Of a stretch of 7,227 nt of DNA, positions 1-7,227 are shown piece after piece. Within the stretch, counting starts at the first letter, position 1; every line of letters starts with the position of its first letter. Position numbers and translations under genes: made by a program. Source of the DNA: a virus (Duplodnaviria > Heunggongvirae > Uroviricota > Caudoviricetes). The notes under the pieces were generated by a model. That model was given only the letters and a program-made list of their open reading frames with translations, was not told where the DNA came from and made no database searches. The stretch lies in the IMG/VR virus record IMGVR_UViG_2531839586_000020, positions 1 through 7,227 of that record; one strand, 5' to 3'.

Positions 1-492
1 AACTCCGGGACGCTCAACAACGTCACGATTAACGAGAACTGTCGGGTTCTGGGAAAACTGTCCGCGAACCAGATTGAAGGCGATCTCGTTAAAACAGTGG
101 GCAAAGCTTTCCCCCGGGACTCCCGTGCACCGGAGCGGTGGCCATCAGGAACCATTACCGTCAGGGTTTATGACGATCAGCCGTTTGACCGGCAGATTGT
201 TATTCCGGCGGTGGCATTCAGCGGCGCTAAACATGAGAAAGAGCATACTGATATTTACTCCTCATGCCGTCTGATAGTACGGAAAAACGGTGCTGAAATT
301 TATAACCGTACCGCGCTGGATAATACGCTGATTTACAGTGGTGTTATTGATATGCCTGCCGGTCACGGTCACATGACACTGGAGTTTTCGGTGTCAGCAT
401 GGTTGGTAAATGACTGGTATCCCACAGCAAGTATCAGCGATTTGCTGGTTGTGGTGATGAAGAAAGCCACCGCAGGCATCAGTATCAGCTGA
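1..492 (+). CDS. J: Tail tip / host specificity protein J, C-terminal 163 codons (5' end outside window)
   Basis: Frame 1 is open from position 1 to TGA at 490-492. Translation ends ...[89 protein letters not shown], which matches my recollection of the lambda J C-terminal receptor-binding end. The ORF track starts at an internal GTG (97) but the frame is open upstream to the window edge. Confidence 0.9.
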
Positions 493-511
493 ATTTTATA
501 ACCCCAATACG

Positions 512-535
512 GGCGCCAGAAATGGCGCCTTTTTT
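512..535 (+). terminator. Rho-independent terminator downstream of J
   Basis: Perfect hairpin GGCGCC (512-517) / loop AGAAAT / GGCGCC (524-529), followed by a T6 run (530-535). Sits 20 nt after the J stop. Confidence 0.6.
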
Positions 536-559
536 ATTGCAGAAAAGCGAGAGGTAATT

Positions 560-1140
560 ATGCGTAAAGTTTATGCAGCCATTTTGTCCGCAGCCATCTG
601 TCTGGCCGTATCCGGTGCGCCTGCATGGGCGTCTGAGCAGCAGGCCACACTGAGCGCAGGGTATCTTCATGCCCGTACGAACGCTCCCGGCAGCGATAAT
701 CTGAACGGGATTAACGTGAAATACCGTTATGAGTTTACGGACACCTGGGGCTGAACGTCTTCAGTATGCAGGAAGATGAGCAAAAAACGCATTACAGCGA
801 TACCCGCTGGCATGAGATTCCGTCGTAACCGCTGGTTCAGCGTATGGCGGGCCGTCTGTGCGCGTGAATGAATGGTTCAGCGCGTATGCGATGGCGGGTG
901 TGGCTTACAGCCGTGTGTCGACTTTCTCCGGGGATTATCTCGTACTGACAACAAGGGGAAAAGCACGATGTGCTGACCGGAAGTGATGACGGTCGCCACA
1001 GCAACACGTCTCTGGCGTGGGGGGCTGGCGTGCAGTTTAACCCGACCGAATCCGTGGCCATTGATATTGCTTATGAAGGCTCCGGCAGTGGTGACTGGCG
1101 CACTGACGGTTTCATCGTGGGTGTCGGTTATAAATTCTGA
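560..1140 (+). pseudogene. lom: lom (outer membrane protein Lom, Ail/OmpX family moron), frame-disrupted
   Basis: RBS GAGAGG (549-554) then ATG at 560. Frame 2 gives MRKVYAAILSAAICLAVSGAPAWASEQQATLSAGYLHARTNAPGSDNLNGINVKYRYEFTDTWG, then TGA at 752-754. Lom-like peptide then continues in shifting frames: SDTRWHE (frame 1, about 796-816), RRNRWFSV (frame 2, 821-844), VRVNEWFSAYAMAGVAYSRVSTFSGDYL (frame 3, 858-941), and KHDVLTGSDDGRHSNTSLAWGAGVQFNPTESVAIDIAYEGSGSGDWRTDGFIVGVGYKF (frame 1, 961-1137) ending at TGA 1138-1140. Span 581 nt is not a multiple of 3. Identity is confident; the pseudogene call assumes the sequence is accurate. Confidence 0.75.
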
Positions 1141-1167
1141 TTAGCCAGGTAACACAGTGTTATGACA

Positions 1168-1193
1168 GCCCGCCGGTTCAGGCGGGCTTTTTT
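1168..1193 (+). terminator. Rho-independent terminator downstream of lom
   Basis: Hairpin GCCCGCC (1168-1174) / loop GGTTCA / GGCGGGC (1181-1187), followed by a T6 run (1188-1193). Immediately precedes the stf RBS and start. Confidence 0.6.
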
Positions 1194-1775
1194 GTGGGGT
1201 GAATATGGCAGTAAAGATTTCAGGTGTACTGAAAGACGGCACAGGAAAACCGGTACAGAACTGCACAATCCAGCTGAAAGCAAAACGTAACAGCACCACG
1301 GTGGTGGTGAACACGCTGGCCTCAGAAAATCCGGATGAAGCCGGGCGTTACAGCATGGACGTTGAGTACGGCAGTACAGCGTTATTCTGTTGGTGGAAGG
1401 TTCCCGCCGTCACATGCCGGGACCATCACGTGTATGAAGATTCCACCGGTACGCTGAATGATTTTCTCGGTGCCATGACGGAGGATGATGCCGTCCGAGG
1501 CACTGCGCCGTTTGACTGATGGTGGAAGAGTGGCGCGTAACGCGTCCGGGTGGCACAGAACACGGCAGCCGCAAGAAGTCAGCCAGGATGCCGGCACATC
1601 GCCGTGAGGCGGCAACCCATGCGACTGATGCTCAGGCTCAGCACGGCAGCCAGCACTCAGCCGGCAGGCCGCGCGTCGGCTCAGTCAGCTCTTCCAGCGC
1701 AGGAACGGCATCAACAAAGGCTGAAGCATCAAAAGTGCTGCGCTGCAGAGTCCTCAAAAAGCGCGGCAGCTACCA

Positions 1776-4007
1776 GTGCCGTGCGGCGAAAACGTCAGAA
1801 ACGAATGCGGCAGCGTCACAACAATCGCAGCCACTTCTGCATCCCCGCGACCACGAAGCGTCAGAAGCGCCACCTCAGCCCGGGATGCGGCGGCCTCAAA
1901 AGAGGCAGCGAAATCATCAGAAACGAACGCATCATCAAGCGCCAGTAGTGCCGCTTCCTCGGCAACGGCGGCAGGAAATTCCGCGAAGGCGGCAAAAACG
2001 TCCGAGACGAACGCCAGGTCTTCTGAAACGGCAGCGGGACAGAGCGCCTCAGCTGCGGCAGGCTCAAAAACAGCGGCTGCGTCGTCTGCCAGTGCCGCAT
2101 CAACAAGTGCCGGGCAGGCCTCAGCCAGTGCCACCGCTGCCGGAAAGTCGGCAGAAAGTGCCGCATCGTCTGCTTCAACAGCCACAACGAAGGCTGGCGA
2201 AGCCACTGAACAGGCCAGCGCAGCAGCGAGGTCAGCTTCCGCAGCGAAGACATCCGAAACGAACGCGAAAGCGTCGGAAACCCGTGCAGAATCCTCAAAA
2301 ACGGCTGCCGCATCGTCAGCCAGTTCGGCGGCGTCATCGGCATCATCGGCGTCTGCTTCAAAAGATGAGGCGACCATACAGGCGTCAGCAGCGAAGGGCA
2401 GCGCCACGACGGCATCCACGAAGGCGACAGAGGCTGCTGGTAGTGCGACGGCAGCAGCTCAGAGCAAAAGTACGGCGGAATCTGCAGCAACGCGCGCTGA
2501 GACAGCGGCAAAACGGGCAGAGGATATTGCATCCGCCGTGGCGCTTGAGGATGCGAGCACGACGAAAAAGGGGATAGTACAGCTCAGTAGTGCGACTAAC
2601 AGCACGTCTGAAACGCTGGCGGCAACGCCAAAGGCAGTAAAATCAGCCTATGACAATGCAGAGAAACGTCTGCAGAAAGACCAGAACGGCGCTGATATAC
2701 CCGATAAGGGACGCTTCCTGAACAACATTAACGCGGTCAGTAAAACAGACTTTGCTGATAAGCGTGGTATGCGTTATGTGCGGGTTAACGCTCCTGCAGG
2801 TGCAACATCTGGAAAATATTACCCTGTTGTTGTTATGCGTTCTGCTGGCTCAGTAAGCGAACTGGCATCAAGGGTCATTATCACCACGGCAACGCGAACC
2901 GCAGGCGATCCGATGAATAACTGCGAGTTTAACGGATTTGTTATGCCTGGTGGCTGGACTGACAGGGGGCGTTATGCTTATGGAATGTTCTGGCAATATC
3001 AAAACAATGAACGAGCCATCCACTCAATAATGATGAGTAATAAGGGCGATGATTTGCGCTCTGTGTTCTATGTTGATGGCGCTGCTTTCCCTGTTTTTGC
3101 GTTTATCGAAGATGGCCTGTCAATATCCGCACCTGGTGCTGATCTCGTTGTTAATGATACGACCTATAAGTTTGGGGCAACAAATCCGGCGACTGAATGT
3201 ATCGCGGCGGACGTTATCCTTGATTTTAAGAGTGGGCGTGGTTTTTATGAGTCTCATTCGTTAATCGTTAACGATAACTTGTCGTGCAAAAAACTTTTTG
3301 CCACAGACGAAATTGTAGCGCGTGGTGGTAATCAGATTCGAATGATAGGTGGGGAGTATGGGGCATTATGGCGTAATGATGGCGCTAAAACTTACCTGCT
3401 GCTTACCAATCAAGGTGATGTTTATGGTGGCTGGAATACATTAAGACCGTTTGCTATTGATAACGCAACCGGCGAACTGGTTATTGGAACCAAACTGTCC
3501 GCAAGTCTGAACGGTAATGCATTAACAGCAACAAAGCTGCAAACGCCAAGACGGGTTTCTGGTGTTGAGTTTGATGGTTCCAAAGATATTACTTTAACCG
3601 CCGCGCATGTGGCTGCTTTTGCCAGAAGGGCAACGGATACATATGCCGATGCGGATGGTGGCGTTCCCTGGAATGCCGAATCAGGCGCTTATAATGTCAC
3701 CCGCTCTGGCGACAGCTATATTCTGGTTAACTTCTATACCGGAGTCGGAAGTTGCCGGACCTTGCAGATGAAGGCGCATTACAGAAATGGTGGTCTGTTC
3801 TACCGTTCTTCAAGAGACGGTTATGGTTTTGAGGAAGACTGGGCAGAAGTTTATACCTCGAAAAATCTTCCACCAGAAAGCTACCCAGTCGGCGCACCAA
3901 TCCCGTGGCCATCAGATACCGTTCCGTCTGGTTATGCCCTGATGCAGGGGCAGACTTTTACAAATCTGCCTACCCGAAACTTGCAGCCGCTTATCCGTCA
4001 GGCGTGA
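1776..4007 (+). CDS. stf: stf central fragment: longest intact ORF of the disrupted side tail fibre gene (Ala/Ser-rich shaft repeats plus distinct central domain). The ATG at 1776 is probably not a real start
   Basis: 743-codon ORF in frame 3. Contains [24 protein letters not shown]..., [44 protein letters not shown] and ...[21 protein letters not shown], all recalled as Stf-like. The last 16 codons (after about 3960) are out-of-frame read-through. Confidence 0.6.
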
Positions 4008-4585
4008 TCCCTGATATGCGTGGCTGGACGATTAAGGGCAAACCCGCCAGTGGTCGGGCCGTATTGTCTCAGGAACAGGACGGCATTAAATCGCATACCC
4101 ACAGCGCCAGCGCATCCAGTACGGATTTGGGGACGAAAACCACATCGTCGTTTGATTACGGCACTAAATCCACGAATAACACCGGGGCGCATACGCACAG
4201 TCTGAGTGGCTCTACGGGGTCTGCCGGTGTTCATACTCATGGTAATGGTATTCGTTGGCCAGGAGGCGGCGGTTCTGCGTTAGCATTTTATGATGGCGGT
4301 GGGTTCACTTATGTCCAGAATTCACAGTATCAAGTAAGCCCGGAGACTTCTTCCTATAGATCGTATTATCAACGTATTCAGACACAGTCAGCAGGTGCTC
4401 ATACCCACTCGCTGTCTGGTACTGCAGCAAGTTCTGGCGCACATGCACATACTGTAGGTATTGGTGCGCATACGCACTCCGTTGCGATTGGTTCACATGG
4501 ACACACCATCACCGTTAACGCTGCGGGTAACGCGGAAAACACCGTCAAAAACATCGCATTTAACTATATTGTGAGGCTTGCATAA
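3905..4585 (+). CDS. stf: stf C-terminal fragment (His-rich repeat region, receptor-binding / Tfa-dependent tip); the first roughly 18 codons are out-of-frame overlap
   Basis: Frame 2 ORF. From about 3962 it reads [52 protein letters not shown]...GAHTHSLSG...[49 protein letters not shown], matching the recalled lambda Stf C-terminus. Stop TAA at 4583-4585. Confidence 0.6.
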
Positions 4586-5169
4586 TGGCATTCAGAATGA
4601 GTGAACAAGCACGGACCATAAAAATTTATAATCTGCTGGCCGGAACTAATGAATTTATTGGTGAAGGTGACGCATATATTCCGCCTCATACAGGTCTGCC
4701 AGCAAACAGTACCGATATTGCACCACCAGATATTCCGGCAGGCTTCGTGGCTGTTTTCAACAGTGATGAGGCATCGTGGCATCTCGTTGAAGACCATCGG
4801 GGTAAAACGGTTTATGACGTGGCTTCCGGCGACGCGTTATTTATTTCTGAACTTGGCTCGTTACCGGAAAATGTCACCTGGTTATCGCCGGAAGGGGAAT
4901 ATCAGAAGTGGAACGGCACAGCCTGGGTGAAGGATACGGAAGCAGAAAAACTGTTCCGGATCCGGGAGGCGGAAGAAACAAAAAACAGCCTGATGCAGGT
5001 AGCCAGTGAGCATATAGCGCCACTTCAGGATGCTGTAGATCTGGAGATCGCAACGGAGGAAGAAACCTCATTGCTGGAAGCCTGGAAAAAATATCGGGTG
5101 TTGCTGAACCGTGTTAATACAACAACTGCACCTGATATTGAGTGGCCGGAAGAACCAGACACAATGTAA
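4585..5169 (+). CDS. tfa: Tail fibre assembly protein Tfa (194 aa), intact
   Basis: ATG at 4585 overlaps the stf stop (TAATG); RBS GAGG at 4573-4576. Translation [91 protein letters not shown]... is near-identical to recalled lambda Tfa (orf-194) and the same length. Stop TAA at 5167-5169. Confidence 0.92.
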
Positions 5170-5335: not shown

Positions 5336-6094
5336 TTAACATTCTGGATTTTTTATTTCTAAATCAGATAAAGCATTAATTCTTATTTTTTCTAAGGCTT
5401 TATCCATGGCCCCCTTGATTCTGTATCCATAATCATCCGGTTCTTCATATTCCTGTGGGGACGGATTTGTACCAATATTCTCAATTAATTCATTTAAAAT
5501 AACTGTTACTTCTTTATTAAGAAGAACTGCTTTAGTTAACATCATCTCTGTTAATGCTGTGAAGGCTAGGCTAAGTTTCTGTTGTAGCTCTTTATTTTTT
5601 AATTTAAGATCTTCATCGTTTAGTGCTTTATCACGGTCTTCGTGAGCCTGTTGTACTTCATCCCAAAACAGCTTTTCTTGTTCTTGATTAAAATATCCTT
5701 GATAACTATTGGCTACATATGTTGGCATCATGTGAATCTCAATAATTTCAAATTCATTATCAGCCCATTTTTTTATACTAAGTAACTGAGTGTAAATGTA
5801 CTCATACATATCGTACTTTTTTTGCCAGATTTGTTGAGAAATCCACAACTCAGAAGTAATCTTTTTTTCTATATCTTTGATAGTTGTTGTATTTAATGCT
5901 AACTGCTTTCTGAGTATTTCATAGTTAGCGTTGGTAGCAGAAATTTTTGCTTTTTCAGTTATAAAAGAAACAATAAAGTTCACTATGAGAGCTGCAATAA
6001 TAATAGCGAAGCTCAACCCTAAAATCTCTGTGGTTGAGAAATTAGATGACTGTAATGCTTTGATAAGTTCAAAAAACTGTTTTTCTGTGAGCAT
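5336..6094 (-). CDS. Hypothetical single-pass membrane protein (252 aa), AT-rich cargo gene B; function unknown
   Basis: 759-nt ORF in roughly 32% GC DNA (sample counts), where long ORFs are unlikely by chance. ATG at 6094-6092 is preceded on the minus strand by AAGGT about 5 nt upstream. Hydrophobic stretch ILGLSFAIIIAALIVNFIVSFI (residues about 24-45) then a charged, probably helical domain (...EDRDKALNDEDLKLKNKELQQKLSLAF...). No recognisable catalytic motif. Confidence 0.75.
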   Translation of the reverse strand: MLTEKQFFELIKALQSSNFSTTEILGLSFAIIIAALIVNFIVSFITEKAKISATNANYEILRKQLALNTTTIKDIEKKITSELWISQQIWQKKYDMYEYIYTQLLSIKKWADNEFEIIEIHMMPTYVANSYQGYFNQEQEKLFWDEVQQAHEDRDKALNDEDLKLKNKELQQKLSLAFTALTEMMLTKAVLLNKEVTVILNELIENIGTNPSPQEYEEPDDYGYRIKGAMDKALEKIRINALSDLEIKNPEC

Positions 6095-6165
6095 GGTACC
6101 TTACCAAAAATTAAGACTGTTATCTATATAAAAATGTTACCCAAGAGGGATTGTAATGAAATAAC

Positions 6166-6187
6166 AAACCGGCACATTGGCCGGTTT
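6166..6187 (-). terminator. Hairpin directly after the stop of gene A; candidate intrinsic terminator or attenuator between the two cargo genes
   Basis: Perfect 8-bp stem AAACCGGC (6166-6173) / 6-nt loop / GCCGGTTT (6180-6187). On the minus strand it begins 5 nt after the gene A stop and is followed by GTTATTTCATT (U-rich). The stem has only 5 G:C pairs, so strength is uncertain. Confidence 0.4.
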
Positions 6188-6192
6188 GAAGT

Positions 6193-7227
6193 TCAAGGGG
6201 GTGAGATTGTAGAGGCGTTACCTTGTTCTATCACACCAGACCTAATCTTATAACTACCAAGGATGTTGACCGTTTTATTATTTTTCATCGCGTCAAAAAT
6301 TAAGCCTATTTCATCAGGATCATTGATAAAACTGGTATCAACATAGATCGGGAATGAATCATCACCTGTTGGCTCATGGCAGCTTAACGTTAGCTTATCG
6401 GCTGAGCGTTTTATACTATCAATGACAACTTCCAATGTTTGCTGCTCTGACTTAGCCTTTTCAATTGGGTTCTTGATGATTTCTTGAACCTGACCTTGCG
6501 AAAGCTCAATATTGCTGGCCCCGCGGATCGTCACTTTGTCTGCATCAGATGCACCTTTAAGAACTCCAGTGTATGCCTTAGCTGTGTGCTCTTGGATACC
6601 TTCGGCGCGCTCTATCGTATCAATACCTTCATGTGCTTTTATTGCAGACAGCATACCATCGCGTAGAATTGTCATCCGCTCGGATTCTGCTCGCTGTTTT
6701 GCTTCTTCCAGTTGTAACTCAATAGTTTTGGTTTCGACTTGTGTCTGATGATCTAAGTAGGACGTACCGACCCATGCGCCGCCTAAAACTAAGACAGCAA
6801 ACAGGAAACACATTGTTTTCTGTCTTGGGCTCATACCTTGCGTTACCTTCTCAAATGCGTTACCAAAGGAATCAATAAGTTCTTTAACTGAGGTGATAAT
6901 TTCTGTGCAGCCAGGATTGATAGTAAAAACCAACTCTGCAGCTTCTCGATCCTCAGCAGTGAGCTTCTGTAAGTTAGAGGTTTTGTACTTGATTAGAGTA
7001 AAAACCTTGTACATCTCAGTTTGAAATTCACAGATACCCTGTGCCAAACTTGCAGGCAGAGTACCATTATACTTATCTTCATCACCAAAAAATTTGAAAT
7101 CAATACTTTCTAAGAAGTTTAACTTCAAATTTTCAATGTGGATTTCTTCGCCTGAAATAACTCGTCCGAAAATATTTTCTATATCATCAATATCATTGAT
7201 TTCATAGGCCTGAATTGCATCTTCCAT
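6193..7227 (-). CDS. Hypothetical membrane-anchored protein (at least 344 aa), AT-rich cargo gene A; function unknown
   Basis: 1035-nt ORF on the minus strand, stop TGA at 6195-6193. The ATG is the last three bases of the window (7227-7225), so the RBS and promoter are not visible and the true start could be upstream. Acidic N-terminal region, one hydrophobic segment MCFLFAVLVLGGAWVGTSY (residues about 139-157, coded about 6757-6813) with basic residues on its N-side (SPRQKT), then a roughly 185-aa C-terminal domain ending ISPP. No Walker, nuclease or other motif recognised. Confidence 0.7.
   Translation of the reverse strand: MEDAIQAYEINDIDDIENIFGRVISGEEIHIENLKLNFLESIDFKFFGDEDKYNGTLPASLAQGICEFQTEMYKVFTLIKYKTSNLQKLTAEDREAAELVFTINPGCTEIITSVKELIDSFGNAFEKVTQGMSPRQKTMCFLFAVLVLGGAWVGTSYLDHQTQVETKTIELQLEEAKQRAESERMTILRDGMLSAIKAHEGIDTIERAEGIQEHTAKAYTGVLKGASDADKVTIRGASNIELSQGQVQEIIKNPIEKAKSEQQTLEVVIDSIKRSADKLTLSCHEPTGDDSFPIYVDTSFINDPDEIGLIFDAMKNNKTVNILGSYKIRSGVIEQGNASTISPP

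Follow-up and report, generated by a model that had tools for sequence, protein, structure and literature searches.

Frame changes in a lambdoid side tail fibre gene at the end of a draft Escherichia coli contig, read as consensus errors of a collapsed repeat

The side tail fibre gene (stf) in the window, the stretch of 7227 nt of viral DNA analysed here, is broken as deposited by a dense series of small deletions. From comparison with related sequences we conclude with high confidence that these frame changes are consensus errors of a collapsed repeat in the deposited draft assembly, and not pseudogene decay. We read the sequence as a mixed-template consensus because the missing bases fall on paralogue-variable sites, because the damaged stretch is a multi-copy contig end, and because sibling assemblies carry different subsets of the lesions. 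In the organism itself, the gene is most likely intact, stfR-like and ∼1137 codons long.

The window corresponds to positions 2–7228 of draft contig AQBW01000105.1 (30,776 bp; GCA_000358615.2) of E. coli p0305293.15, and covers the last part of a lambdoid prophage. This ETEC isolate belongs to a series of colonies that were sequenced together; PMC4309559 describes the P0305293 series as ETEC isolates from Bangladesh (2011), with GSCID sequencing. The start of the window is the end of the contig and lies inside J, in the lambdoid J-lom-stf repeat. Four features follow on the plus strand. The 3′ end of J, the lambdoid tail-tip gene, occupies 1–492 (ORF 97–492, with PF12421, Ig_GpJ_C, on the called gene). 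The Ail/Lom outer-membrane protein gene lom spans 560–1140 and is divided into ORFs 560–754, 858–986 and 970–1140, with PF06316 matches. The stfR-like gene stf extends over 1205–4585, and the tail fibre assembly gene tfa (4585–5169; PF02413) is an intact ORF. Directly after J and after lom, at 505–535 and 1166–1192, lie G+C-rich hairpins followed by T-runs; they are conserved in homologues and, judged by their sequence, would be typical intrinsic-terminator-like elements.

Beyond tfa the minus strand holds two intact A+T-rich ORFs, situated between tfa and dinI-prfC: one of 252 aa (5336–6094), whose N-terminal segment is hydrophobic, and one of 344 aa (6193–7227). Their position is conserved in many E. 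coli, and the 344-aa protein occurs in 613 blocks of the collection index; neither ORF had a significant Pfam or PADLOC match. They look like a putative pair of prophage cargo (‘moron’) genes. The stretch 5336–7227 has no gaps against the closest complete genome, Ec-U11, and serves as an error-free control.

The lesions belong to the deposit itself and were not added later, since the GenBank proteins ENG47479.1 and ENG47476.1 match the truncated Stf and Lom ORFs, respectively. Contig AQBW01000105.1 is the sole record of the truncated ORFs. Ambiguity codes stripped by our scan pipeline were considered as a source of the deletions and rejected, as ENG47479.1 is already the truncated ORF; such stripping may have occurred inside the submitter's pipeline.

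Reading frames were taken from nucleotide alignments, as tblastn searches with the Ala/Ser-rich shaft gave many spurious low-complexity matches. Aligned to intact alleles, the stf patch shows 29 deletion events, together removing 32 bases, after window positions 1371 to 1868; all but one of these events change the frame. Mapped base by base against Ec-U11, the window lacks 32 bases, all within 1369–1868, and has no extra base there. The same result (32 missing, none extra) is obtained against each of 75 distinct intact stf alleles, with 80 loci drawn from IMG/VR, and in a multiple alignment with seven annotated homologues none of these lacks a base in any of the 32 columns. More broadly, the counterpart of 1150–2700 (1551 nt) in thousands of E. 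coli genomes, and in phages, is 1583 nt long, so that the window is 32 nt short relative to its relatives. An earlier note on this DNA had described at least seven frame switches between about 1370 and 1830. Repeated switching is indeed what the alignments show, but the count rises to 28 frame-changing events and the right limit moves to 1868: 26 events (25 frame-changing) lie inside 1370–1830, and three more are at 1844, 1858 and 1868.

The flanks are clean, as that note had also held. The 167 nt before the patch (1205–1371) and the 2.09 kb after it (1869–3959) are in frame, and 959–1368, between the lom and stf patches, contains no indel, which bears out the description of two damaged patches around an intact interval. 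Over window positions 454–4210 there are 57 gap columns relative to Ec-U11, versus none over source contig positions 4401–8715 (4315 nt, comprising the window from 4400 onward and 1.5 kb of chromosome beyond), despite many A/T runs; chance does not account for this contrast. Between these segments, 4210–4400, which encodes His-rich repeats (G-A-H-T-H-S type) of the Stf C-terminus, fails to align with Ec-U11, although its flanks are 97–99% identical; it is still in frame, and we therefore take it as allelic variation in repeat content.

The missing bases fall preferentially where natural alleles differ. Among 74 close alleles, 26 of the 32 missing sites are polymorphic, versus 112 of the 497 retained sites of the patch (Fisher p=2e-11). 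The bias is sharper for common variants (minor-allele frequency ≥5%), which account for 24/32 missing and 38/497 retained sites (Fisher p=2.5e-18). Third codon positions make up 17 of the 32 missing sites, and 23 of the 32 missing bases lie outside any homopolymer. Six missing sites, as placed, show no variation among the 74 alleles; all six are in runs of two to four identical bases, so that gap placement there is ambiguous.

Individual pairs of stf copies reproduce much of the pattern. Ec-U11 and the stf copy of ETEC strain 120899 differ within the patch at 17 of the 32 missing sites, and adding a further allele (L033) brings this to 23. Within a single complete ETEC genome, comparison of two stf copies gives 20 differing sites, and 11 of these are among the sites deleted in the window. 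No pair or triple of the sampled alleles covers all 32 sites (the best pairs cover 17–23 and the best triples 23–26); the best allele combinations, those covering 23–26 sites, bring 5–11 extra differences; and the window keeps its base at some positions, stf nt 90 and 150 among them, where sampled alleles differ. Because variable sites are retained and no allele set covers all 32, the copies actually co-assembled would lie outside our allele sample. Polymorphism across all sampled alleles is 26% inside the patch and 29% outside it, in stretches that stayed intact; the extent of the damage (673–1868 plus 3959) would reflect which sites differ between this strain's own copies.

Apart from its gaps the patch is nearly indistinguishable from natural sequence. 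It has no substitutions relative to the stf copy of ETEC strain 120899 and four relative to Ec-U11, and at each of these four the window's base is found in other natural alleles. The best genome matches by megablast are 94.2% identical, which is 521/553, so the gaps are the only differences from the top matches. The frequent substitutions reported earlier are real by comparison with lambda (∼86% identity) but disappear against the closest alleles (0–4 in the patch). Restoring 33 bases yields a single ORF of 1137 aa with no internal stop, ending at the start of tfa. The same prfC-side locus, where the module lies by dinI-prfC, is intact in other strains, with a 1133-aa fibre gene, and in Ec-U11, whose genes are arranged in the same order, lom is intact and stfR is 3399 nt long. 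By megablast, only intact versions occur in the 5,426 complete E. coli genomes, and none has the damaged allele; exact-pattern scans likewise did not find the exact damaged pattern in IMG/VR or in GTDB representative genomes.

The repaired gene is an ordinary member of the lambda Stf/E. coli StfR family. It shares with that family the J-lom-stf-tfa order, the PF08400 N-terminal domain (phage_tail_N, detected on a 104-aa fragment), the Ala/Ser-rich shaft, the His-rich C-terminal region and a tfa gene overlapping the stop codon, and its nucleotide identity to annotated stfR genes is 96–97.5%. As deposited, without repair, the gene differs from these in being split into many ORFs.

Lambdoid prophages share the J-lom-stf module, and E. 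coli genomes usually hold several slightly different copies of it. The 5′ stretch of stf occurs at a median of two places per E. coli genome, with a maximum of 13–15, and at 4–8 places in the ETEC genomes listed among the best matches. In sibling isolates the module is found at a second locus too, on the ydfJ side. Counted over the first 900 nt of stf, the prfC-side contig end of p0305293.15 has 32 deletions, the contig end at the second, ydfJ-side prophage of p0305293.2 has 18, and the contig end at the same ydfJ-side locus of p0305293.11 has 43. Two short contigs made of the J-lom-stf repeat are also affected: AQCA01000157.1 (3.5 kb; 27 deletions), counted with the sibling assemblies and having an 83-aa Stf fragment of the same protein sequence as in p0305293.2, and APXC01000170.1 (2.5 kb; 31 deletions). 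The five sets of missing sites overlap without being identical. The most direct comparison is that of p0305293.2 with p0305293.11: at this one locus of two sibling isolates there are 72 gap columns, 66 of them in lom-stf, while the adjoining 8 kb of chromosome is almost identical. Heritable mutation cannot yield such a difference at one locus of clonal siblings; assembly from a mixed pile-up can.

Two other observations concern assembly quality more generally. At ∼9500–10000 of the p0305293.2 sequence, the comparison with p0305293.11 shows six gap columns and six substitutions in a chromosomal Peptidase_M3 gene (683 versus 681 aa), which suggests that localised consensus errors in this assembly batch are not confined to prophage repeats. 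A further record of the same prfC-side prophage (GCA_900449095.1, UGBT01000002.1) has many split chromosomal genes around it (deoC, yjjI, tatD and others); since the assembly looks generally indel-rich, it is unfit as an intact reference.

We propose that reads from at least two diverged J-lom-stf copies, a copy number that p0305293.15 itself would have to carry, were piled into one consensus at the contig end. Where the copies agree, the base would have been called correctly; where they disagree at a column, the consensus would have emitted no base. As for the software step itself, we infer that alternative bases may have been spread over different alignment columns, in each of which gaps won the vote, or that ambiguous calls may have been removed. 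The case resembles the collapsed-repeat and mixed-haplotype errors of draft short-read contig ends in affecting the same kind of multi-copy stretch (here, one that is multi-copy in E. coli genomes) at a contig end, with errors at copy-variable sites, clean unique flanks and lesions that are not reproducible across siblings. It departs from them in one respect: such errors usually leave a chimeric base, a majority base or an ambiguity code, whereas in the window the variable column is dropped, leaving 1-nt deletions.

The lom patch (673–958) is the same artefact. The gene has a net 19 bases missing, its intact counterpart in relatives encodes a Lom of 199 aa, and the variable loop region (742–794) corresponds to one particular allele type (L011) minus ∼10 bases at lom-allele-variable positions. 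Downstream of the main stf patch, a 1-nt deletion after 3959 (3959–3960, in TTTT[G/A]ACAAA) splits off a C-terminal stf ORF of 226 aa. The missing base is the first of a GAC/AAC-variable codon, read as GAC in 13 relatives and as AAC in one other draft assembly, APYH01000058.1, whose accession prefix is close to the window's. From 3968, 9 nt further on, the sequence is homologous to truncated tail-fibre copies in other prophage remnants. This deletion is probably the same artefact, although with less certainty than the main patch.

The earlier note had offered two accounts of the damage, a low-quality or low-coverage stretch of sequence and a defective prophage whose tail fibre is truly inactivated. 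The former was right in pointing to an artefact, here one of assembly, but not in its cause. Random sequencing error from poor quality or coverage, that is, missed base calls unrelated to repeat structure, would fit a dense, deletion-only pattern in a short stretch near a contig end, such as a poorly covered read tail; it would not, however, favour polymorphic sites (p ∼1e-11 to 1e-18) or third codon positions, nor hit the same positions again in independent assemblies and at another prophage locus, and most of the missing bases are outside homopolymers. We consider it very unlikely. Homopolymer-type error (454, Ion or nanopore) was likewise rejected: homopolymers account for only a minority of the lesions, and not one indel occurs in the 3′ half of the window, which is A+T-rich and rich in homopolymers. 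As to genuine decay, in which a defective prophage would have accumulated frameshifts in stf and lom, it draws some credit from the many prophages at such loci that are remnants and from real frameshifts in some lambdoid stf genes: one lambda record has stf as two CDSs, and split annotations are found in phi458, mEp332 and ev099. Laboratory lambda provides the clearest parallel, in the same gene family, and one lambda match carries a note of a missing C relative to Ur-lambda; but that is a real, single, heritable one-base lesion, whereas the window has 33 lesions at variable sites that are not reproduced between sibling assemblies. Bacterial pseudogenes decaying neutrally should gather many more substitutions than indels, and their indels should be mixed in sign and size. 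Here 32 deletions in 500 nt are accompanied by no insertion, by 0–4 substitutions and, after repair, by no nonsense codon; the lesions sit on paralogue-variable sites; clonal siblings have different subsets of them at one locus, which is not what a heritable pseudogene predicts; and the allele occurs in 0 of the 5,426 complete genomes. With the clean 1137-aa repair and a locus intact elsewhere, the idea of an inactivated fibre gene does not survive, and we give decay even less credence than random error.

Base removal by the cell at mismatches, for example through faulty heteroduplex processing during recombination of paralogous prophage copies, also predicts lesions at paralogue-variable sites and differences between sibling colonies. 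We know of no mismatch-processing pathway that removes a single base without resynthesis, however, and such a process would need to strike dozens of times within 500 nt, in each colony, and yet spare the adjacent unique DNA; the lesions are, moreover, tied to contig ends in draft assemblies. As an account of the patch it is the least credible of those considered, close to negligible. The narrower claim that the deletions are real at least in part, arising by mismatch-directed single-base loss during paralogous tail-fibre recombination and differing by colony, is itself extremely improbable. Programmed frameshifting and slipped-strand phase variation were rejected as well, given that 23 of the 32 missing bases are outside runs of identical bases. 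Pseudogene, phase-variable gene and programmed frameshift are therefore all unsuitable labels for stf, since each of these classes failed a defining test.

Collapsed-repeat consensus errors can be diagnosed in practice from a signature of four parts: 1-nt, deletion-only lesions without substitutions, at paralogue-variable sites and near a contig end. The signature can be recognised by sequence comparison alone, without reads. The lom and stf ‘pseudogenes’ of this and the sibling records should accordingly not be taken as evidence for prophage decay, for loss of side tail fibres or for a local mutational hotspot.
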